The notes: generated from the letters alone by a model not told the origin. A DNA stretch of 16,007 nt from an uncultured Candidatus Rokubacteria bacterium (GCA_963747235.1 CAVVEU010000023.1:1-16007), one strand, 5' to 3'. Counted from the stretch's first letter, positions 1-15,946 are shown. Numbers and translations: made by a program.

Positions 1-39
1 CCGCTCGCCCGCGCTAGGGGCTCGATCCGGCCCGAAGAG

Positions 40-81
40 AACACCCGGGACGCCCTCGCCGACGAGGGCGTCCCGGGTGTT
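40..81 (-). terminator. Intrinsic terminator-like hairpin downstream of the secreted-protein gene
   Basis: Perfect 19-bp inverted repeat AACACCCGGGACGCCCTCG (40-58) / CGAGGGCGTCCCGGGTGTT (63-81) with a 4-nt loop. It lies 7 nt after the TAG at 89-91 and is followed on the minus strand by CTCTTC. Confidence 0.8.
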
Positions 82-88
82 GGATCGA

Positions 89-560
89 CTAGTCGACCTT
101 TATACCGACGCTGGTGGAGGCATTCCCTTCGACCACGGTGCGGATTTCTTTGCCTTGTCGGACCACCACCAGGTGCAGAATCACGGGAGAAAATGGACTC
201 CCGGGGATATTGATCTGCGCTGTCCCGGTGCAATCGGAATTGACGTGATACGGGCCGCTGCCGAACGTCCACTCCTCGGCTGGCGGCTGGCCATTGGCCA
301 CGACGTGGTCCACCTGGCTCAGGTGGCCCTTGCCATCAAAGTGAGTCATGGCTACCCCGCGGAGCGGGAGGGTGACTCCGGGTGCAGCGAGGATTAGACC
401 TTCGATGGCGAATCCGTAATCGCCCTTGAGGGTTTGGTTTGAGCAGGCGCCGTTGTCCGAGCCAGCTTTTGCATAGATGCCCGACATCAGTACACCGCAA
501 CACCACGACCATCACGAGAGCCGCGACCATCGTAATTCGCAAGCCTGACTTCGTGTGCAT
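89..560 (-). CDS. Secreted hypothetical protein (CSNxTLKGxYGF...V.SDCTG type, small beta-rich, probable disulfide); apparent +1 frameshift near 497
   Basis: ATG at 560 with a GGGAG RBS starts a signal-peptide-like MHTKSGLRITMVAALVMVVV. The mature part (GVLMSGIYAKAGSDNGACSNQTLKGDYGF...) is in the neighbouring frame (ORF 89..487), which is closed upstream by TGA at 512-514. Removing one base near 497-498 joins the two. Confidence 0.7.
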
Positions 561-719
561 TGAGGTCTCCCTGTGGACGCGGGCCTTAGCCCATGGAAGG
601 ACATGTCTCGGCATGAGCGATGTGTGGGGGCGCGTAGCAGCGGCGCGACCCTGGCCAAAACTGCGAGAAAAAAGATTGACCTCCTCTTCCGGATAGCGCG
701 TCGAGACAGCGCCTGGGCG

Positions 720-749
720 AGACTAGGCGCCGATACGACAAGGGGTCAA
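720..749 (-). promoter_or_regulatory. Putative sigma70-type promoter for the 89..560 gene
   Basis: Minus strand TTGACC (749-744), 18-nt spacer, TAGTCT (725-720), in the intergenic region. Confidence 0.4.
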
Positions 750-830
750 GCGATCCGTGTGCTTACTGTGTGATTGCTGGCGATACCTACACCGGCCAGG
801 CGAAATTGGCCAGATCACCACGCTCGACCG

Positions 831-2446: not shown

Positions 2447-5400
2447 CTAGTCAGTCGAACGGGGGGAGGCCAGATCGACAGCCTCGGTGCCCTTTTTCAT
2501 GGGCCGCCGGCGCGACTCCGCGAGCCGCTCGACCGCCACGTAGAACGCCGGCACCAGCAGCACGCCGATCACCGTCACCGCGAGCATCCCGCCCACCACC
2601 GTGGTGCCCATCGAGTTCCGGCTGGCCGCGCCCGCCCCCGTCGCGAACACCAGCGGCAGCGAGCCCAGGATGAAGGCGAAGGACGTCATCAGGATGGGCC
2701 GGAAGCGCAGGCGGGCGGCTTCGCGGGCCGCCTCCTGGATCGGGGCCCCGTGCTCCCGGCGCTCCTTGGCGAACTCCACGATCAGGATGGCGTTCTTGCT
2801 CGCCAGCCCCATGAGGAGCGCGAGGCCGATCTGGGCATACACGTCGTTGGCGAGCCCGCCGAGCCAGAGAGCGCCCAGGGCGCCGAGGACGCCCAGCGGC
2901 ACCGCCAGGAGCACCGCCAGGGGGACGAGCCAGCTCTCGTACTGCGCGGCGAGGACGAGGAACACGAAGAGCGCGGAGAGCGCGAAGACGAATCCCGCCC
3001 GGCTGCCCGCCTCGAGCTCCTGGTAGGCGAGGCCCGTCCACTCATACGACATGCCCGCCGGCATCACACTGCGCGCCACGTCCTGCATGGCCGCGATGGC
3101 CTGACCGGAGCTGGCCCCGGGCGCGGTGTCGCCCGCGATCTCCGCCGTCCGGTACAGGTTGTAGTGGGAGATCGTGTCGGGCCCGGTGATCGGCTTCACC
3201 GTGACGAGCGTGCTCAGCGGCACCATCTGCGCGGGCTGCCCGCTCGTGCCGGGCTGGCTCCGGACATAGAGCCGCGCGACGTCGCTGGGCGAGGCGCGGA
3301 AGCTCGGCTCGGCCTGAAGCTGCACCCGGTACACGCGCCCGAACGCGTTGAAGTCGTTGACGTAGAGCGAGCCCAGGAAGATCTGCAGGCTCGAGAAGAC
3401 GTCCGACAGCGGAATGCCGAGCGCCTTGGCCTTGGCGCGGTCCACCTGCGCGTCGAGCTGCGGCACGCCCGGCCGGAATCCCGTGAAGGTCGCGGCCAGC
3501 TCCGGCCGCTGGCGGGCCGCGTCCATGATCTTGCGCGCGGTCACGTCGAGCTCCTGGAGCGAGCCGCCGGCCACGCTCTGCAGCTCGAACTGAAACCCGC
3601 CGCCCGAGCTGATGCCCCGGATCGGGCGGCGGCGGGAAGACGACGATGGAGGCCTCCTGGATGCTGCCGAGGCGCGCGCGCAGGCGGCCCAGGATCGCGC
3701 CGGCCTGGAGCTCACGCGTCTTCCGCTTCGACCAGGGCGTGAGGCGCGGAAAGAGGGAGGCGACGTTCGGGCCGTTGACGCCGGTGATGAAGCTGCGCCC
3801 GCCGATGGCCACCACGGTCTCGACGCCGGGCGTCTCCAGCAGGATCTTCTCGATCTGACGCACCACCGCGTCGGTGCGCTCGACCGAGGCGGCGTCGGGA
3901 AGCTGGACGTTGACCAGGAGATAGCCCTGGTCCTCGGTGGGCGCGAACCCGGTGGGCACGATGCGGAGCAGGCCGTAACCGGCGGCGCTCAGGAGCAGCA
4001 GCGCTACCACCGCGAGGGCCGATCGCCGGACGATGCGCCGCACGGTCCGATCGTAGCCATTGGTGAGCCGGAGGAAGCCCGCGTCCCAGGTCCGGGCCAG
4101 CCAGCGCTTCCGGGTCGCGCCGGCGGGCCGGAGGAGGAGCGCGCAGAGCGCCGGGGTCAGGGTGAGCGCGTTCAGCGCGGACAGCGCCACCGAGACCGCA
4201 ATGGTCAGCGCGAACTGCCGGTAGAGCTGGCCGGTGATGCCGGGCAGGAAGGCGATGGGGATGAACACCGCCATCAGCACGAGCGCGGTGGCGATGACCG
4301 GGCCCACCACCTCCGCGGTCGCGCGCCGGGCGGCCTCGCGGGCGCCCAGCCCCTCCTCCTCGAGATGCCGCTGGGTGTTCTCCACCACCACGATGGCGTC
4401 GTCCACCACGATCCCGATCGCGAGGACGAGCCCGAAGAGCGTCAGCGTGTTGATCGAGAACCCGAACAGGCTGATCACCGCGAAGGTGCCCACGAGCGAC
4501 ACCGGGATCGTCATGGTCGGGATGAGGGTGGCCCGCCAGTCCTGGAGGAACACGTAGACGGTGAGGACGACGAGGCCGATGGCGATGAGGAGGGTCAGCA
4601 CGACCTCTTCGATCGAGACCCGGACGAACTCGGTCGTGTTGTACGGGCGCGTATGGGTGACGCCGCTCGGAAAGCTGGGCGCGAGCCGGGCCACCGCGGC
4701 CTGCACGCCCTTCGACACGTCGAGGGCATTGGCGCCGGGGAGCTGGAAGATCCCGATGAGCGCCGCCGGCGAGCCGCCGACTCGCCCGAAGGCCCCGTAG
4801 CTCTGGGCGCCCAGCTCCACGCGGGCGACGTCGCGCACGCGGAGCACCGAGCCGTCGGACCGGGTGCGGAGGATGATGTCCTCGAACTCGGCCGGCGTCG
4901 AGAGCCGCCCGCGTGTGGTGACGGTGTACTGGAACTGCTGGCCGGGCAGCGACGGGGGCTGGCCGATCTGCCCGGCGGCGGCCTGCAGGTTCTGCTCCCG
5001 GACCGCATCGGCCACATCGCCCGCGGTGAGCCCGAGCCCGGCGAGCCGGTCGGGGTTCAGCCAGAGCCGCATGCCATAGTCCCGCCCGTTGAACACGGTC
5101 ACCTGCCCCACGCCGGGCACCCGCGCCAGCACGTCCACCACCTGGAGCGTGGCGTAGTTCGCCAGGAAGAGCTCGTCGCGGCTCCCGTCGGGCGAGATCA
5201 AGGCGACGATCTCGACCAGGTCGGGACTCTGCTTGGTGATGGTGAGCCCCTGCCGGGTCACGTCCGCCGGAAGCTTGGCCTGGGCGATGGAGACCCGGTT
5301 CTGCACGTTCACGGCCGCGATGTCGAGGTCCGCGCCGACCTTGAACGTCACGGTGAGCGTCATGGTCCCGTCGCTGCCGCTTCTGGAGGACATGTAGATC

Positions 5401-5627
5401 ATGTCCTCGACGCCGTTGACCTGCTGCTCGATGGGCGTGGCCACCGTCTGCTCCACGACCTCGGCGCTGGCCCCCGGATAGGTGGCGGTCACGACCACCT
5501 GCGGCGGGGTGATCTCGGGGAACATCGCGATCGGCAGGAACGGGATCGCCACCGCGCCGGCCACCACGATGACGATGGCGAGCACGGAGGCGAAGATCGG
5601 GCGGTCGATGAAGAAGTTGACGAACAC
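2447..5627 (-). CDS. RND multidrug efflux permease (HAE1, AcrB/MexF-like); +1 frameshift at about 3624-3626
   Basis: Motifs MFVNFFIDRPIFASV, GLVLAIGIVVDDAIVVVEN, GLASKNAILIVEFAK and RLRFRPILMTSFAF. It is split between ORFs 3042..5627 and 2447..3715. Removing one base from the GGG at 3624-3626 restores VFPPPPIRGISSGGGFQF and a protein of about 1059 aa. Confidence 0.93.
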
Positions 5628-5633
5628 CGGCGG

Positions 5634-6950
5634 TCAGCTTCCGGGCGTTGCCGGGAGCGCCTCCAGGGTCGGCTCCACGCGGATCCCGGACCGGATCTGC
5701 TGGAGGCCCTTGACGACGACGTGCTCGCCGGGCTTCACCCCCTCCTCGACCACCCACAGCGGCCCCACGCGCGGGCCCATCCGGACCGTGCGCGCCTGCA
5801 CCGTCTGGTCCGGGGCCACCACGAAGAGGGATGCCGACCCCTGGCTCTCCTGGATCGCGGCCTGCGGCACGACGAGCGCATCGGGGCGGTCGGCGAGGAG
5901 GATCCGCAGCCGCACGTACTGCCCCGGCTGGAGCATCCGCGCCGGATTCGGGAAGGCGGCGCGCAGGGCGAGGGTCCCGGTGCGGGGATCCACCGCGCGG
6001 TCCACGAAATCGAGCCGGCCGTCGTGGGGGTAGGGGCTGTCGTCGGGCAGCGTCATGGTGATGCCGGAGGAGCCCGGCCGCGCCTGCATCTCCGCGCGGC
6101 GGCGCCCCCACACGGCCAGCGCCTCGCGCTCGCTCACGCTGAAGCTGACGTACATCGGATCGAGCGTGGACACGGTGGCGAGGAGCGTGGCTTCGCCTTT
6201 TCCAACGAAGGCTCCCACCCGGACCTCGGCGCGGCCCATGCGCCCATCCAGCGGCGACTTGACCGACGTGTACCCGAGCTGGAGCCGGGCGGTATCGGCC
6301 GCGGCCTCGTCGGCGCGGATCGAGGCCCGCGCGTTCTCGATGGCCGCCTGGGACGCGGCGAGCGCGGCTCTCGCGTTCTCGAGGGCGGCGCGGTCGGCCT
6401 GCACGGTGGCCTCGAGCGCGGTCATGTTGGTCCGGATCTGGTCGTACTGCTCGCGGGCCACCAGCCCTTGCTGGAGCAGCGTGCGGTAGCGCCCCTCCTG
6501 CGTGACGGCATTCTCGACCTGGGCGAGATCGCGGTCGATATTGGCCTGCGCCTGCCGCACGTCGGCTTCGCGCTGCGTGAGCGCGGCCTCCGCCTGGCGG
6601 AGCTGAGCGGTGTCGCGGGCGACATTGGCCTCGGCCTGGCGGAGGGCGGCCTCGAAGGGGCGCGGATCGATCACGAAGAGCAGATCCCCTGCCTTGACGT
6701 CGGCCCCGTCGGGCGCCACCTGCCGCTCGATGAAGCCCTCGACCCGGGCGCGCACCTCGACGGTCTTCACCGCCTCCGTCTGGCCCACGTACTGGCCGTA
6801 GACCGGGACCGAGCGTTGCGCCACCGCCACCACCGTGACCCCGGGCGGCTTGGGCCCCGCGCTCACCTGGGGCGATCGATCGCAGGCCGCCAGCCCTGGC
6901 AGGACCACGATCAGCGCAACACCGGCGAGCAGACGGACACCAGGCGTCAT
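5634..6950 (-). CDS. RND efflux periplasmic adaptor (MFP) lipoprotein
   Basis: Probable start MTPGVRLLAGVALIVVLPGLAAC (lipobox LAAC). Motifs VEVRARVEG, GDLLFVIDPRPFEA, LGYTSVKSPLDG and VDPRTGT. It ends 6 nt before the permease start. Confidence 0.92.
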   Translation of the reverse strand: MTPGVRLLAGVALIVVLPGLAACDRSPQVSAGPKPPGVTVVAVAQRSVPVYGQYVGQTEAVKTVEVRARVEGFIERQVAPDGADVKAGDLLFVIDPRPFEAALRQAEANVARDTAQLRQAEAALTQREADVRQAQANIDRDLAQVENAVTQEGRYRTLLQQGLVAREQYDQIRTNMTALEATVQADRAALENARAALAASQAAIENARASIRADEAAADTARLQLGYTSVKSPLDGRMGRAEVRVGAFVGKGEATLLATVSTLDPMYVSFSVSEREALAVWGRRRAEMQARPGSSGITMTLPDDSPYPHDGRLDFVDRAVDPRTGTLALRAAFPNPARMLQPGQYVRLRILLADRPDALVVPQAAIQESQGSASLFVVAPDQTVQARTVRMGPRVGPLWVVEEGVKPGEHVVVKGLQQIRSGIRVEPTLEALPATPGS

Positions 6951-7027
6951 GTGCTTTTGATGAGTCCCCCTCGTCAGTGGTTTCCAGTTCGATCGAGCAG
7001 CGACGACCCGGCGCCAACCGCACGGAA

Positions 7028-8402
7028 TCATGGGCTAACGTCTCCCCTCGCGCGCGGATGCAGGACGTCGATCGCCCAGCGCACGTCCAGCCGCTCCCCG
7101 AACCACGGTGCGAGCCCCGTGCGCGCATGAAGCTTGAGGCCCTGCGCGACGTTCTGTGCCCGGATTGCTCCGGCCGGATCGGCGGGCACCGCCGCCGGTA
7201 CCGGTACGTTGGGCAACGGCCGACCATCCGGCCGTCGGAACTGGAGGGTCCCGTCGGGCCCACGCTCGACCTGGTAGCCCTCCTCGTGCACTGCGCGGTG
7301 ATGGCGGCGACAGAGGAGCGCCAGATTCGATAGTTTCGTTGGGCCCCCGTGGGCCCAATGGCGCACGTGATGCCCCTCGGCGATCCGAACAGTGCAGCCC
7401 GGGAAGCGGCAGGTCTTGTCCCGATGCTGCAATGCCCGCCGTAGCGCCGGAGGAATCGTCCGGGTTCGAGCTCCGACTTCCACCACCCGCCCGTCCTCAT
7501 CGTGCCGCATCACCACCCGGCTTGCGTCGCACGCCAGCCGCTGCGACGTTCCCGCGGGAACGTGCGGGCCGCTCTTCCAGCTCCGACTGTCCGGGCTGGG
7601 CCGCATTCGCCAGGACGGCGGCATCCACGTGGACCACCACCTGATAGCGCTCCCCTGTGGCTCCGGGATCGAGCTCGTGATGCAGCGCGGCCTCGGCCAG
7701 CAGGGCCAACGCGTCCGCCTGCTGCTGCGGCCGGGTCGGGGTCTCCGACGCCGGGTCGGTGGCCGGTACGGCGGCCTCGCTGGCGCGGCACCGTTGGTAG
7801 AGCGTTTCGCGGGCGGCGTCCAGGGCCCGCAGGAGTAGTGCGCCCGCCTCCGGCGTCAGCCTCCCACGTAGTACCACGGTGCCGTCCTCATCCTGGTAGA
7901 CGTGCAGGGCGCGGCCCGCGTGCTGCCGCGTGGCCTCACGCGCTTCGGCCTGCTGGTCCAGTCGGCGCCAGCCCCGCACGATGCTCTCCACGTGGACCGC
8001 CGTGCCCGCGCGCCCCACCGCGAGCAGGCGCCCCTCAGTCTCCGGGGTCGCGATGCGGGTCAGGGCGCGCACCTTGGCGTAGGAGAGCTCTCCGCGCGCC
8101 AGCGCCTCCGCCAGGGCCGGCAGCGTCCCGAGGGCGCGGGCTACGCGGACATGCTCGCGGGCGGCGCCGGGGGCGAGTCCGATGCGCCAGGCGAGCCACT
8201 CGGCACAGGAGCGGAAGCCGTTGGCCCAGCCTTCGCGGGCGTCGAACTCGCGGATGAGCGCGAGGAGCCGGGCGGTCGCCGCTTCGAGGTGGGCCGAGAG
8301 CTCGGCGATCTGGTCGCCCAGGCGATCCAGGTCCGCGAGATGCGGCGGCACGGGCTGCGAGGGCTGCAACGGGGCGGGTACTTCCGGTGGGCGTGTCTCC
8401 AT
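7028..8402 (-). CDS. DUF222-domain HNH endonuclease (13E12 repeat-like); +1 frameshift at about 7571-7573
   Basis: N-terminal part: LIREFDAREGW..GFRSCAEWLAWR, GELSYAKVRALTR, ADALALLAE, YQVVVHVD. C-terminal part: RLACDA, RRALQHRDKTCRFPGC, GHHVRHWAHGGPTKLSNLALLCRRHHRAVHE. The two parts are in adjacent frames and join if one base is removed. Confidence 0.88.
7546..7563. repeat. Perfect 18-bp palindrome inside the HNH gene
   Basis: ACGTTCCCGCGGGAACGT equals its own reverse complement and encodes HVPAGT. Confidence 0.85.
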
Positions 8403-8501
8403 GGCGAGTTCCCCACACACACTCAACACACCACGAGGCCCCTGCGAAACTCCGTCAAGCAAAAAATGCGAACGTGCCGGGCCACCGGCCGCAGAAAGAG
8501 C

Positions 8502-11442: not shown

Positions 11443-12018
11443 ATGAGCGAGCCCACTGGTACTCCGGCGGCCGGTTCGGCCTGGTCCCGCACGCCCTGGC
11501 GCCGGACCTCGACCCGGCCGGTCTACACCAACCAGTGGATCTCCGTCCGGGAGGACGTGGTCACGCTGCCGGACGGCCGCAGCACGCTCTACGGGGTGGT
11601 GGAATGCAGCGAGTGCGTCGGGATTCTCCCCTTCCTCGACGTGAACACGGTCCTCCTGGTGGGGCAGTACCGCTACGTGGCGGGCGACTTCTTCTGGGAG
11701 ATCCCCACCGGCGGCCAGCACGCCGGCGAGACATCGGCCGAGGCCGCGCAACGCGAGCTGGCCGAGGAGGCGGGGTACGAGGCCGGGCGCCTGGTCGAGC
11801 TGGGCGACTTCCATACCTCGAAGAGCATCATGCGCGAGGTCGCTCACCTCTACGTGGCCCATGACCTGCGCCCAGCCTCACGCGCGGCGGACCCCACCGA
11901 GTTCATCGAGCGGCGCGCGTTCCCGTTCGCCGAGGTGCTCGCCATGGTGGAGCGCGGCGAGATCAAGGACGCGATGACGATCATCGCGGTGCTGCGCGTG
12001 GCGCGAAAGCGCGGGTAG
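11443..12018 (+). CDS. NUDIX hydrolase (ADP-ribose pyrophosphatase-like)
   Basis: Nudix box GGQHAGETSAEAAQRELAEEAGY, plus LLVGQYRY, WEIPTG and GEIKDAMT. Confidence 0.92.
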   Translation: MSEPTGTPAAGSAWSRTPWRRTSTRPVYTNQWISVREDVVTLPDGRSTLYGVVECSECVGILPFLDVNTVLLVGQYRYVAGDFFWEIPTGGQHAGETSAEAAQRELAEEAGYEAGRLVELGDFHTSKSIMREVAHLYVAHDLRPASRAADPTEFIERRAFPFAEVLAMVERGEIKDAMTIIAVLRVARKRG

Positions 12019-12022
12019 GCGC

Positions 12023-13114
12023 GTGGCCTCTGCGCTCGAGCACGTTGCCTGGGAGCGGTGCCTGGTCGAACCCCGCCCGGACCAGGCCCTGGAATCCTAC
12101 GCCCGGCGGAGGTGGGGGATACCCAGCCCGGCGATCCGCTACTTCGTGCCCGTCCCATGGATGGCCCGAGCGCTGATCGATCTACACCCCGAGTTAGGGC
12201 TCCTGATGCGCCTCGACCAGGCGGTGGCGGATCTCGTGACGCTGGTCGTCAGTCAGGAGAACTCGTGTCGGTTCTGCTACGCAGCTGTGCGGGCGATGCT
12301 GTGGGTTCAGGGAATGAGCACTGGGCGAATCCAGCGCGTGGAGCAGGACCTGTCGCGAGCGGATCTCTCGCCGCGGACCCGGGCCGCCATCACCTTCGGG
12401 CGGAGCCAGTCGCGCTCCGGTCCGCCGGCGGCGCGCGCCGCTCGGGAAGCGCTTCACGGCGCGGGCTTCGGCGCCGACGAGATGAAGGAGATCGCGTTCA
12501 CGGTGGCCATCACGGACTTCAGCAACCGCGCCCACACGATCCCCGCGATCCCCTCGCGCCCGGTTGAGCGGATCCCAGATCAGCTCCACATGCGGCTGCT
12601 CCGGCCCCTGGTCAACCGGATTCTCAAGAAGCATCGCTACCGTGGCCAGGCGGCGCTGCTGGATCGCGTGCCGGCGTATCCCTACGTCCGGCTCGTGCAG
12701 GCCTACGAGGGCTCTCCTATCGCGCCGACGCTGGCGCGCACGCTTGAGGAGATGTGGGCCTCCCCTCACCTCACGCGACGGTGCAAGCTCCTGATGCTCG
12801 CCGTCATCGCCCGGGGGCTGGCGTGCGAGGTGTGCGCGCTGGAGGTGGGCGAAGCCCTGCAGCGGGAAGGCCTGAAGGAGACGGCGCTCACGCAGGTCCT
12901 GACCCATCTCGACGCCCCCGAGCTGGACCCCGTCGAGCGTCTACTGGTGCCCTTCGCTCGAGAGACGATCTGGTTCGAGCCGGCGCCGATGCAGCGCCGC
13001 GCCCGTGCCCTGCGCGAGCGCCTCTCGAGCCCACAGATCCTCGAGGCGATCGGGGTCGCGGCCCTGGCCAACGGGCTCTGCCGGATGGGCGCCATGGTGC
13101 TGGATCACCCATGA
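12023..13114 (+). CDS. Tandem AhpD/carboxymuconolactone-decarboxylase-fold protein with two CxxC motifs
   Basis: 363 aa with two repeated helical modules, LVVSQENSCRFC...EMKEIAFTVAITDFSNR and LAVIARGLACEVC...QILEAIGVAALANGLCR, typical of AhpD-like domains. Confidence 0.75.
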   Translation: MASALEHVAWERCLVEPRPDQALESYARRRWGIPSPAIRYFVPVPWMARALIDLHPELGLLMRLDQAVADLVTLVVSQENSCRFCYAAVRAMLWVQGMSTGRIQRVEQDLSRADLSPRTRAAITFGRSQSRSGPPAARAAREALHGAGFGADEMKEIAFTVAITDFSNRAHTIPAIPSRPVERIPDQLHMRLLRPLVNRILKKHRYRGQAALLDRVPAYPYVRLVQAYEGSPIAPTLARTLEEMWASPHLTRRCKLLMLAVIARGLACEVCALEVGEALQREGLKETALTQVLTHLDAPELDPVERLLVPFARETIWFEPAPMQRRARALRERLSSPQILEAIGVAALANGLCRMGAMVLDHP

Positions 13115-13902
13115 CGCCGACCGTCGTCGTGGCCGCCCTGCTGGTGCTCCTGGCGGTTCTCGTCGGCACGCTCTATCGCCAGCGGCGACGGACCGAGAGC
13201 CTCCAGGCGCAGCTCGACGCGGCCGCCGCCGAGCTCCAGCATCTTCAGGACGCGTGCTCCCGGCTGGCGCCCGCCGGGGTCGTGCAGCGGCTCATCGCGG
13301 ATGGCGTGACCGCGGGCACCCAGGCCGCCGCCGAGCGGAAGGTGGTGACCGCCCTCTTCGCCGACCTCGTGGGCTATACCGCGATGAGCGAGCGGCTGGA
13401 ACCGGCCGTCCTCGCGCGCGTGCTGAACGGCTACTTCCAGCGCATGAGCGACGCCATCCACGAGCACCGCGGCCACGTCTCCACCTTCCTCGGTGACGGC
13501 ATCCTGGCCTACTTCGGCGCGCTCCAGCCGAACCCGTGGCAGTGCAACGACGCCGTACGGGCCGCGCTGGCCATGCGGGCGGCGATGCGCGAGTACAACG
13601 TCGAGCTCGCGCGCGAGGGGCTACCCCCGCTGGCCGTGGGGATCGGCATTCACCGCGGCCCGGGGCTGGCGGGCCTGGTGGGCTCCCGCGAGCGGATGGA
13701 GTACGCGTTTGTGGGTCGCACCGTGAACCTGGCCGCGCGCGTCCAGGCGCTCACGCGCACCCATCAGGTGGACATCCTCATCACGGAGGCGCTCCGCCCC
13801 GAGCTCGACACGCGCTTCGTGCTGGCGTCCATGCCCGCGGAGCCGGTGAAGGGTATTGCCGAGCCGGTGGTGACCTACGCGGTGCGGGAAGCACTCGGCT
13901 AG
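13111..13902 (+). CDS. Class III adenylate/guanylate cyclase-family protein with a single N-terminal TM and a coiled coil
   Basis: ATGA overlap with the upstream gene. N-terminal VVVAALLVLLAVLVGTLY anchor, then LFADLVGYT, FLGDG, GIGIHRG, TVNLAARVQ and VKG; 263 aa. Confidence 0.9.
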   Translation: MTPTVVVAALLVLLAVLVGTLYRQRRRTESLQAQLDAAAAELQHLQDACSRLAPAGVVQRLIADGVTAGTQAAAERKVVTALFADLVGYTAMSERLEPAVLARVLNGYFQRMSDAIHEHRGHVSTFLGDGILAYFGALQPNPWQCNDAVRAALAMRAAMREYNVELAREGLPPLAVGIGIHRGPGLAGLVGSRERMEYAFVGRTVNLAARVQALTRTHQVDILITEALRPELDTRFVLASMPAEPVKGIAEPVVTYAVREALG

Positions 13903-13956
13903 GCTGCCACCCCCTGGGCAACGGGTCCGCGCAGGAGCCCGGAGACCGGCTCGTGG

Positions 13957-14065
13957 CTCAGGACTTCCCGAGGAGGTACATCTCGCCGCTCGGGGCGGGC
14001 AGGCCGCCCCGTCCCCGAGGCGTCCACGCTGAACACCCCCGCCGAGACGGGCGCGTTGTTCCCCG
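13957..14065 (-). pseudogene. Degenerate second copy of the rskA 3' end with an internal deletion of about 71 nt
   Basis: 13957-14008 matches 15184-15235 (4 mismatches in 52 nt) and 14009-14065 matches 15307-15363 (4 in 57). It encodes GNNAPVSAGVFSVDASGT // GGLPAPSGEMYLLGKS*. Confidence 0.9.
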
Positions 14066-14088
14066 TTACTCTGGGCGATGGACTCGTC

Positions 14089-14209
14089 GTTCATCGAGCG
14101 GCGCGCGTTCCCCTTCGCCGAGGCGCTCGCCATGGTGGAGCGCGGCGAGATCAAGGACGCGATGACCATCCTCGCGGTGCTGCGCGCGGCGCGGCGCGGC
14201 GGAGGCTAG
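14089..14209 (+). pseudogene. Second, divergent copy of the NUDIX gene 3' end
   Basis: 14089-14193 matches 11901-12005 with 5 mismatches in 105 nt. It encodes FIERRAFPFAEALAMVERGEIKDAMTILAVLRAARRGGG*, against ...AEVLA...TIIAVLRVARKRG* in the intact gene. Confidence 0.92.
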
Positions 14210-14258
14210 CCAGCGGTCACGCCGACGCGGCCACCCGGAGCACCCCTGGTCTCGCTCT

Positions 14259-15155
14259 TCACATCCCGGCTACCCGGAAATCATCCAGAGTGGGCCGGAC
14301 GTGAATATCCGTAAGGTCGTACCTGGGCACGCGTCCGTAGAAGGATGCCCACTGCGAAAACGTACTTGGTGGGCCGACTATGTAGTCGCACGCCGCCAAG
14401 GCGTACAGGTCTTGAATCACCGAACCATTGCTCGCACATGTCGGTTGCCGAAAGTGATCCAAGGCCTGTTGCGAGTCGGAACAGACGAGAACCCCTGTAC
14501 GCTTGTTGCCAAACAGCGTGCGGACGTGCTCGACCGCTGCCGCGTATTGTTCAATCGCATAAAAGTATCTCCCATGGATGAATTGTCTGTAGTCGCCATG
14601 GCGAATGTGCAGGCCAATCAGCACGTCTACTCGGTCGCGTGTGCGCGCCGTCAACTGCGCAACGCGCTCGGCGTCGTCTGAGCGCGGTCGGAAATAGTGT
14701 CGCACCGTATCCGCATGTTTCCTGAAATTGGTGTTATCGCGCACAAGCGGTCCTTGAAAAACGATGAGCCCGGGAGCACGCACTCTTTCGCGGAACGCGT
14801 CCGAATCCAGACTGACTACGCCCGCGCGGGTGACGAGAGTTGACTCGTACCCCGACTCGATATGCTGAATGTATCTGCCCTGCAATGCTTTGGTCCGCCC
14901 GCGCGCGAGTGAATCGGCCAAACGCAGACTCCAGCGCGCCACCCGGGCGCGGCGCGCCGGCGTTGGTGCCAGCAAGGATCGACGAGCAGGAAAGCGACAG
15001 AAGAGATCCTGCGCGGTCGTCTCAAACGAGTCCGCATAGGCTCCAAAGAGCAAGTGTGCGACGGAGGTGTCATGCTCCGCCGCACACGCGATCAACGCAC
15101 CGAACATGAAGAGCTGGTTGCCCAGTTGATTTGCCTGCCCCGCAATGACAAACAC
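14259..15155 (-). CDS. Alpha-1,2-fucosyltransferase-like glycosyltransferase (GT11)
   Basis: Probable GTG start at 15155 (MFVIAGQANQLGNQLFMF). GT11 motifs LGNQLF, IGLHIRHGDY, VCSD and DLYALAACDYIVGPPSTFSQWASF. GC is visibly lower than in the flanks. The longer 519-aa ORF start overlaps rskA and is unlikely. Confidence 0.85.
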   Translation of the reverse strand: MFVIAGQANQLGNQLFMFGALIACAAEHDTSVAHLLFGAYADSFETTAQDLFCRFPARRSLLAPTPARRARVARWSLRLADSLARGRTKALQGRYIQHIESGYESTLVTRAGVVSLDSDAFRERVRAPGLIVFQGPLVRDNTNFRKHADTVRHYFRPRSDDAERVAQLTARTRDRVDVLIGLHIRHGDYRQFIHGRYFYAIEQYAAAVEHVRTLFGNKRTGVLVCSDSQQALDHFRQPTCASNGSVIQDLYALAACDYIVGPPSTFSQWASFYGRVPRYDLTDIHVRPTLDDFRVAGM

Positions 15156-15184
15156 GATACGGTTCCGTACGCAGGTGTTCCGTC

Positions 15185-15946
15185 TCAGGATTTGCCGAGG
15201 AGGTACATCGCGCCGCTCGGCGCGGGCAGGCCGCCGGCGGGCTCGAGCGTCACCGCGAACGCGTTGACGGTCGCCACGCCGGGCAGCGGCCGCACCGAAA
15301 GGCTCCCCGTCCCCGAGGCGTCCACGCTGAACACGCCGGCCGAGACGGGCGCGTTGGTGCCCGCGATGGCCCAGAGCTGATACGCCTTGCCCGCCGGCGC
15401 CTCGGGCAGCCCCGCGGCGACGAAGACGCCGCCGGCCCTTGCGTGCCACATCATGTGGCCGCGCGCGGTCGGCGCGGGCGCCTGGCCGGCGAGCGCGACC
15501 ATCTGGGTGGCCGGGTCGCGCAGGATCGTGATCACCGTCTGCTGGCTTCGCAGCTCCGCCTTGAGCTGCTCGGCGTCGCGCGCCAGGGCGTCGAGCCGCT
15601 TCTCGTAGGTGGACGAGATCGACCAGCCGACCACGATCGCGACGAGTCCGGTGGCCATGGCTCCGCTCAGCACCACCGGCCAGATGGCGCGGCGAGCACG
15701 CGGCAGCGGGCGCTCCGGCGGGCGGGCCGCCGCGATGCGCTCCATGAGCGCGGCCTTCACCGCGGGCGGAGGCGTCTCCGGCGCCGCGGCGGCCAGGTCC
15801 GCGAGAGTCCCCTCGCACTCGCGGAGCGCGGCCACCGCCTCGGGGTCGCCCGCGCGCAGGAGCGTCTCGAAGCGCGCGCGGTCCCCGACCTCGAGCCCTC
15901 CGAGCGCGTACGCCGCCGCCAGCTCGCCGATCTCTTCGCGGTTCAT
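15185..15946 (-). CDS. rskA: Anti-sigma factor, RskA (anti-sigma-K) family
   Basis: ELAAAYALGGL N-terminal anti-sigma domain, PPPAVKAALMERI, one TM, and the RskA C-terminal motifs GKAYQLWAI, PVSAGVF and FAVTLEPAGG..PSG. Confidence 0.88.
   Translation of the reverse strand: MNREEIGELAAAYALGGLEVGDRARFETLLRAGDPEAVAALRECEGTLADLAAAAPETPPPAVKAALMERIAAARPPERPLPRARRAIWPVVLSGAMATGLVAIVVGWSISSTYEKRLDALARDAEQLKAELRSQQTVITILRDPATQMVALAGQAPAPTARGHMMWHARAGGVFVAAGLPEAPAGKAYQLWAIAGTNAPVSAGVFSVDASGTGSLSVRPLPGVATVNAFAVTLEPAGGLPAPSGAMYLLGKS

Follow-up and report, generated by a model that had tools for sequence, protein, structure and literature searches.

Head-to-tail alleles of a NUDIX-rskA hotspot in an uncultured Candidatus Rokubacteria bacterium and their probable additive origin

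How does a genome come to hold two different sets of genes side by side between the same pair of core genes? This question is raised by a locus of an uncultured Candidatus Rokubacteria bacterium (GCA_963747235.1, CAVVEU010000023.1:1-16007), in which a NUDIX hydrolase gene and rskA, the gene for an anti-sigma-K factor, enclose two gene blocks together with truncated second copies (stubs) of their own 3′ ends. The whole stretch of DNA analyzed, referred to as the window, is the entire contig C23 of 16,007 bp. Read from left to right, with arrowheads for direction, the order is NUDIX >, CMD/AhpD-like >, cyclase >, < rskA stub, a 23-nt filler, NUDIX stub >, < GT11-like and < rskA. Two hotspot alleles lie head-to-tail here, one carrying an AhpD-like gene and a cyclase gene, the other a low-GC GT11-like glycosyltransferase gene. 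The best explanation, with a probability of roughly 0.6, is that a second allele was added to an integrase-free hotspot in a single episode, through one homologous and one illegitimate join.

Duplicated gene ends and the seam between the blocks

The two intact genes converge on the interval. NUDIX, the left core gene of the hotspot, occupies 11443-12018 on the plus strand and encodes 191 aa (PF00293, E 7.5e-15), and rskA, the right core gene, occupies 15185-15946 on the minus strand and encodes 253 aa (PF10099, E 1.2e-22). A repeat search and pairwise alignment reveal that the last part of each gene is present twice. The 3′ end of intact NUDIX (repeat copy N1, 11901-12005, plus strand) recurs at 14089-14193 as 105 nt of 95% identity. 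The duplicated part of rskA corresponds to the last ~180 nt of the gene and aligns in two pieces, 15184-15235 with 13957-14008 (52 nt, 92%) and 15305-15363 with 14007-14065 (59 nt, 93%), giving direct repeats of 105 nt and about 110 nt in all. Spacing within the two rskA pairs is 1227 nt and 1298 nt, a difference of 71 nt, so that the stub has no equivalent of 15236-15304. The rskA stub (R1, 13958-14065, minus strand), defined by repeats, alignment and tblastn pieces, extends inward from the stop codon and carries this 71-nt internal deletion at 14007/14008, which shifts its reading frame. The matching end of intact rskA (R2, 15184-15363, minus strand), defined by repeats and alignment, holds the 71 nt missing from the stub.

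The NUDIX stub (N2, 14089-14209, plus strand) consists of the 105 nt found by the repeat search followed by a tail of its own. It lies in an open reading frame (ORF) at 14078-14209, and its frame stays open up to its own TAG at 14207-14209, as had been proposed in a first-pass annotation made from the sequence alone. The tail of the stub resembles the genus consensus, and that of intact NUDIX is derived, one codon shorter, and abuts the AhpD-like start.

Between the two stubs lies the 23-nt filler (14066-14088), which has no strand and matches neither NUDIX nor rskA. The order of the gene ends at this seam is permuted: the rskA end precedes the NUDIX end, while empty sites have the NUDIX end first. 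The possibility that the stubs are the relic of an empty site is ruled out by this opposite order. Features of an illegitimate junction are present, in that extended homology is lacking at the 14065/14089 seam and sequences that are not adjacent in the parents are joined. A partial duplication of the homologous anchor flanks the added DNA, and both displaced gene ends are kept, forming just one layer. An origin of the seam by fold-back or inversion was considered and rejected: an 8-mer of the neighboring rskA sequence recurs inverted in the filler, but an equal score arises in 58 of 1000 shuffles and is not significant. Searches with tblastn and blastn found no further copy of either stub or repeat elsewhere in the 5.57-Mb assembly. 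The gene order and the duplicated 3′ ends described by the first-pass annotation are borne out by repeat search, alignments and Pfam, at 92-95% identity. Three features are absent from that annotation, namely the 71-nt deletion in the rskA stub, the 23-nt filler, and the fact that the window is a whole contig of an assembly resembling a metagenome-assembled genome (MAG).

The first insert comprises two genes on the plus strand. A CMD/AhpD-like protein of 363 aa (12023-13114; PF02627, E 2.2e-10) starts 4 nt past the NUDIX stop, and the start of a class III adenylate/guanylate cyclase of 263 aa (13111-13902; PF00211, E 3.3e-21) overlaps the AhpD-like stop; both the start and the stop coordinates of the cyclase gene were checked. 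The second insert is a single gene on the minus strand for a GT11/NodZ-like glycosyltransferase (14259-15155; PF01531/PF05830), 298 aa long if translation begins at the GTG chosen in the public gene call. At a distance of 29 nt downstream of rskA and on its strand, the gene occupies a region with a GC content of 0.57-0.63 as against ~0.70 around it. Inserts 1 and 2 share no sequence and have no repeat family in common. The only domains found by Pfam in the NUDIX-rskA interval are NUDIX, CMD, cyclase, GT11/NodZ and RskA. Across the window there are no tRNAs and no Rfam matches, and Pfam finds no recombinase domain (integrase, excisionase or transposase) in the window ORFs. Promoter and terminator scans returned nothing relevant.

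The interval in relatives and the source of the stubs

The same interval was examined at 100 related loci, 20 from genomes and 80 from a metagenome scan with the NUDIX protein. The NUDIX orthologues at these loci share 73-92% aa identity, none of those from the metagenome scan being at the level of the same species. The 20 genome loci come from a search of 60 relatives and represent 14 genomes of the same genus and six from other genera of the family; one genome whose contig ends inside NUDIX (G003) and weaker matches were left out. Several of the metagenome loci are near-duplicates of one another, so that the counts below are not independent, and the tallies over the 60 relatives, for NUDIX as well as for GT11, include one unpublished genome (G029), on which none of the conclusions depends.

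NUDIX and rskA are convergent neighbors in all 84 loci that hold both gene ends. The interval is empty in 48 of these 84 measurable loci (gap of 60 nt or less), and 36 have inserts of several size and content classes, which agrees with the expectation in the first-pass annotation that the two genes are neighbors with variable cargo in relatives. The gap measures 61-200 nt in eight loci, 201-700 nt in 14 and 701-1500 nt in four. The one locus examined in the second of these classes, L041, has a small ORF with a signal-peptide-like start, and the third includes the low-GC ABC ATPase of L038. Four loci (L042, L068, L077 and L084) contain AhpD and cyclase together, two (L071 and L076) only remnants of AhpD or cyclase, and four have other inserts above 1.5 kb, such as the pseudopilin-like genes of L040. 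The remaining 16 of the 100 loci are not measurable and are mostly contigs that end soon after NUDIX, while L053 and L065 extend more than 2.9 kb downstream of NUDIX without rskA. From its gene content across relatives, the NUDIX-rskA interval appears to be an integrase-free hotspot for foreign genes in the genus.

Several of these loci deserve separate description. Seven contigs (L043, L050, L079, L082, L088, L096 and L138) end 28-229 nt after the NUDIX stop. Their ends suggest that metagenome assemblies are often interrupted at the hotspot, an expected result where strains are unlike. In L038, an ORF like an ABC-transporter ATPase, with a low GC content (0.587), occupies positions 3484-4586 on the strand of rskA, and its ATG overlaps the rskA stop; it typifies the G014-type loci, and the inserts of L062 and L063 have the same length. 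By its position, this ORF is a further case of a lone low-GC gene immediately downstream of rskA, in a different lineage. In L071, NUDIX is directly followed by just the final 86 nt of the cyclase gene (2296-2382), then by ~0.5 kb and rskA, an arrangement that resembles the AhpD-cyclase allele after a deletion. The ~0.5 kb beside rskA in genome G015 (L042 1706-2262) begins like the ~0.5-kb insert of genome G011 (L041 3479-4004). The L042 insert would accordingly be composite and have been assembled without stubs of gene ends, its likeness to the L041 insert being judged from their starts only.

The left block of the window has clear counterparts in relatives. L068 and L077 read NUDIX > AhpD > cyclase > < rskA, where only 11 nt separate the stops of cyclase and rskA, and are 88-89% identical to insert 1 at the nucleotide level, about equal to the flanking genes. 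Across L042, L068, L077 and L084, the gene at the same place shares 79-88% aa identity with the AhpD-like protein and 91-92% with the cyclase. Because it occurs unstacked in relatives at an identity like that of its flanks, the left block is a genuine and widespread allele.

The right block is far rarer. The GT11-like gene is found in none of 20 same-genus and none of 36 same-family genomes, and in two of 24 other genomes of the order, both from a different family, at 38% and 30% identity. It is present in none of the 100 related NUDIX loci, and insert 2 matches nothing in the loci bearing insert 1. No relative above 41% identity occurs among species-representative genomes. Close homologues are confined to single metagenome proteins at 98%, 84% and 82-83% identity, the one at 84% being labeled Methylomirabilota. 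The 98% homologue is on a contig of 1804 nt and the 84% one on a contig of 11 kb.

The stubs themselves hold information on where they came from. They differ from the intact genes at 13 of 216 aligned nt. Five differences fall in the NUDIX stub, of which two are synonymous and three cause the changes V>A, I>L and V>A. The other eight fall in the rskA stub, where six are synonymous, as the first-pass annotation had counted, and two cause the changes A>E and T>N. All 13 differences occur at sites that are variable among orthologues, and at 12 of the 13 the stub base is found in a functional orthologue; it is the majority state at about half. A random substitution would reach an orthologue base 26% of the time, for a binomial P of ~1e-6, a value that is indicative only since it presumes that every difference arose by random change of a stub and counts kindred orthologues as independent. 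Identities to other lineages point the same way. For the 3′ end of intact NUDIX, identity is 96.2% with six other-lineage loci and 95% with the NUDIX stub, and the rskA stub pieces find their best matches in other lineages (96.1% and 94.9%) rather than in the resident copy (92% and 93%). The duplicates are as far apart as alleles of different species. Changes private to the stubs are limited to one unique substitution and the 71-nt deletion, which probably represents later decay by slippage.

Judged by these comparisons, the stubs appear to be fragments of divergent alleles that once worked and that have altered little since they were captured. Since 12 of the 13 stub bases occur in functional orthologues, divergent working alleles account for the stubs rather than decay after a duplication. 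The earlier suggestion that both fragments derive from once-functional alleles is upheld by the same observation.

Additive integration and competing explanations

The head-to-tail topology indicates that the second allele was added and not swapped in. The likeliest origin is one event, in which DNA of a related lineage, spanning a NUDIX 3′ end, a different insert and an rskA 3′ end, joined the resident locus. One step would be a RecA-type crossover in a shared gene, either NUDIX or rskA. The other would be an illegitimate end-join, represented by the filler at 14066-14088 between the rskA and NUDIX stubs. Two routes could combine these steps. The fragment may have been circularized by end-joining before a single crossover, or a linear fragment may have used a homology anchor in one gene while its other end was joined illegitimately, as in homology-facilitated illegitimate recombination (HFIR). 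Both routes yield an identical product, and the final structure is compatible with each equally well. The first-pass annotation had proposed a single crossover, for example from a circular intermediate, that added cargo instead of replacing it. The addition is supported by the topology, and the circular intermediate becomes one of two equally good routes.

We infer a foreign origin for one of the blocks, as well as the order of events and the identity of the resident block. The AhpD-cyclase block is slightly favored as resident because its divergence is like that of the flanks, whereas the GT11 block is a low-GC singleton. Homologues of Ku, ComEC and DprA are encoded in the genome, ComEC and DprA also being present in 10-11 of 14 control genomes; they lend weak support to the additive explanation.

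The diverged direct repeats of 105 nt and about 110 nt could, in principle, resolve the locus to either single allele. It is possible, though doubtful, that the stacked locus has been caught midway through a natural exchange of alleles in two steps (“pop-in / pop-out”) that operates at integrase-free hotspots. Here, the foreign allele would be added first, and the short diverged repeats of the flanking genes would then permit slow resolution to either allele.

Several observations weigh against an additive event. The donor-type unstacked allele (full NUDIX > < GT11 < rskA) was not found in the searches, and full-length NUDIX proteins match the translated ORF of the stub at 88-92% at best, with no exact match. 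The GT11 homologues at 82-83% identity lie in a different context, downstream of another gene; for one at 82%, the different upstream neighbor is judged from an N-terminal extension unlike rskA. No clear crossover point or mosaic boundary is seen within NUDIX or rskA in per-segment identities over ~60 loci, for which only 216 nt of stub are available. The filler of 23 nt contrasts with the 3-10 bp of microhomology given as usual for HFIR junctions in the accessible part of one study (PMC3240628). The binomial value above is, for the reasons stated with it, a guide only. Finally, the junction is known from the assembly; of 20 matching public sequencing runs, the best contains 0.38 of the sampled words, and this is a MAG-like assembly whose 16-kb contig breaks right beside the structure and which lacks sigK.

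These last points bear directly on whether assembly or binning fused the sequences of two single-allele strains into one contig. The assembly amounts to 5.57 Mb in 42 contigs, with 88% completeness and 4.9% contamination, and 60 nt of contig remain beyond the rskA start. The gene sigK precedes rskA in relatives, as seen in L039, but is absent from the assembly, where the best match is 33% identical. Contigs of several relatives likewise break within ~230 nt after NUDIX, and frameshifts in an AcrB gene of the window and in DprA on contig C8 hint at indel errors. However, chimeras produced by a switch between strains join at shared sequence, while the seam here consists of a unique 23-nt filler, truncated genes and a permuted order. 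The 71-nt deletion affects one stub only, and intact rskA on the same contig is without it; an assembler would not invent such sequence. The stubs also occur nowhere else in the assembly. Such a merger is therefore unlikely. A local tandem duplication is still rather unlikely, although end-points inside NUDIX (11901) and inside rskA (15363) would yield exactly the observed topology. One insert would then have been replaced by double crossover, or a composite insert would have undergone differential gene loss, a variant that fits the composite inserts known in relatives, where L042 and L084 hold AhpD and cyclase plus ~0.5 kb. This scenario sits poorly with two inserts that share no sequence and with stubs that are diverged like other-lineage alleles, bearing states of working orthologues at 12 of 13 differences instead of random decay. 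A duplication old enough for 5-8% divergence should moreover be common to relatives, in which the stubs occur at 0 of 100 loci. It also requires more steps, and a perfect tandem repeat of 3.4 kb is unstable.

Two further explanations invoke a defined site of insertion. In the first-pass annotation, NUDIX and rskA 3′ ends were viewed as attachment sites for integrase-free cassette stacking. Were this process recurrent, it would suit a highly variable hotspot devoid of recombinase genes, whose inserts closely abut stop codons, the ABC ATPase start of L038 even overlapping the rskA stop. Among relatives, though, neither the 20 loci from genomes nor the 80 from metagenomes have a second NUDIX or rskA end, and no other locus examined shares the stub end-points. 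The composite inserts of L042 and L084 arose without stubs. Unshared end-points and a non-templated filler are hallmarks of a sporadic illegitimate event and not of a defined site, which makes attachment at gene ends very unlikely and leaves this part of the earlier proposal unsupported. Elements that integrate into gene ends leave attL and attR as direct repeats of the gene 3′ end. The 105-nt imperfect direct repeats flanking the 2.1 kb insert could thus be taken for the remnant of a site-specific integrative element at the NUDIX 3′ end, which carried a replacement 3′ end and later lost its integrase. Against this stand the lack of any integrase, excisionase or transposase domain and of any tRNA in the window, and the repeat-free occurrence of the AhpD-cyclase genes in this position in L042, L068, L077 and L084. 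Such an element would also need to include part of the core gene on the other flank, a feature that suggests capture from a homologous locus instead, and involvement of an element of this kind is most improbable.

Known systems and the surrounding contig

Studies by de Vries and Wackernagel in 2002 and by Prudhomme et al. in 2002 are reportedly cited in connection with HFIR. The locus resembles the products of HFIR and of single (Campbell-type) crossovers in having one homologous and one illegitimate join, a partial anchor duplication (about 105-180 nt here) and no dedicated recombinase. It differs from laboratory events of either kind, which use engineered DNA, in being a natural product of an uncultured bacterium in which two flanking genes are duplicated and a filler takes the place of microhomology. 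In E. coli, according to the available portion of one report, linear DNA was mostly circularized and integrated by a single crossover, leaving duplications of 109-950 bp of the homologous segment, and true HFIR was rarer, usually with microhomology at the join (Amarir-Bouhram, Goin & Petit 2011, PMC3240628). Both routes considered for the window thus have a described counterpart in that species.

Arrays of orphan 3′ ends provide a second comparison. An HFIR-like process has been proposed, in the part of the source available, for the orphan immunity arrays of Vibrio type VI secretion system (T6SS) loci and for displaced Rhs 3′ ends, and such addition is described there as much rarer than plain replacement (Kirchberger et al. 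2017, PMC5361080). Like the orphan 3′-end arrays of T6SS, Rhs and contact-dependent inhibition (CDI) loci, the present structure places an incoming allele beside the resident one and keeps displaced gene ends as scars. Those loci involve polymorphic toxin and immunity genes, with selection for the retained immunity gene and successive layers. Here, by contrast, the flanks are housekeeping and regulatory genes, the inserts encode unrelated enzymes (CMD/AhpD-like protein, cyclase and glycosyltransferase), there is one layer, and no selective reason for retention is evident. Jackson et al. (2009) are reportedly also cited in connection with such orphan-end arrays, for which the term “C-terminal displacement” is used.

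Integrase-bearing elements form tandem arrays at the 3′ ends of tRNAs and other genes, with partial repeats of the target. A preprint (10.1101/2020.12.28.424599) is reportedly relevant to arrays of this type. The direct repeats of a gene 3′ end between successive inserted blocks recall these arrays. The window differs from them in lacking an integrase, a tRNA and a defined core site, and its repeats are unique to this genome among the loci examined. Judged by its sequence features, the locus falls outside any recombinase-based family, given that it shows no integrase, no tRNA and no recurrence.

A further comparison is with hotspots free of mobile genetic elements (MGEs). In the accessible text of one study, half of the horizontal-transfer hotspots are without recognizable mobile elements, and the model offered for their turnover is replacement of content by double crossover within the core genes on either side (Oliveira, Touchon, Cury & Rocha 2017, PMC5635113). 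As in those hotspots, the same two core genes surround highly variable content with no integrase or transposase in the interval. Unlike the replacement expected from that model, as far as the available part of the source presents it, both alleles are kept here, which is an additive outcome.

The locus is a clear natural example of this rarer outcome at an MGE-free hotspot, with a seam preserved well enough for one illegitimate join to be read, and it comes from an uncultured soil lineage in which no genetics is possible. As a single instance known from an assembly, it illustrates a known mechanism and adds no new one. It looks like a scar of ordinary gene exchange and not a new kind of mobile element. 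Gene-end stubs of this type can flag additive events in metagenome assemblies and should not be mistaken for the attachment sites of a new mobile element. If the two-step exchange by pop-in and pop-out were true, duplicated core-gene stubs would provide a searchable signature for the rate of illegitimate-assisted uptake into hotspots of uncultured soil bacteria.

Other features of the assembly were recorded alongside the locus. On contig C8 (615833-616430), the match of the DprA homologue to its Pfam profile is divided between two reading frames, in pieces that abut each other; this apparent frameshift, one of two recorded in the assembly, is consistent with indel errors. The other is in the window, where a gene for an AcrB-type RND pump (2447-5627, minus strand) is split over two frames near 3620-3715. 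Profile positions 1-660 lie in the ORF at 3042-5627 and positions 659-1020 in that at 2447-3715, and the split gene may be either a pseudogene or the result of an assembly indel error. The left contig end has a lower GC content (0.59-0.64 over window positions 1-800) and contains a near-perfect palindrome of ~42 nt at 40-81, with a 95% self-reverse match, which may be a terminator-like hairpin or be tied to the contig break. A membrane-fusion protein gene (5634-7031) lies upstream of the AcrB gene, and a DUF222 ORF (7497-8462, minus strand; E 3.8e-19) is located between the efflux genes and a thiolase gene.

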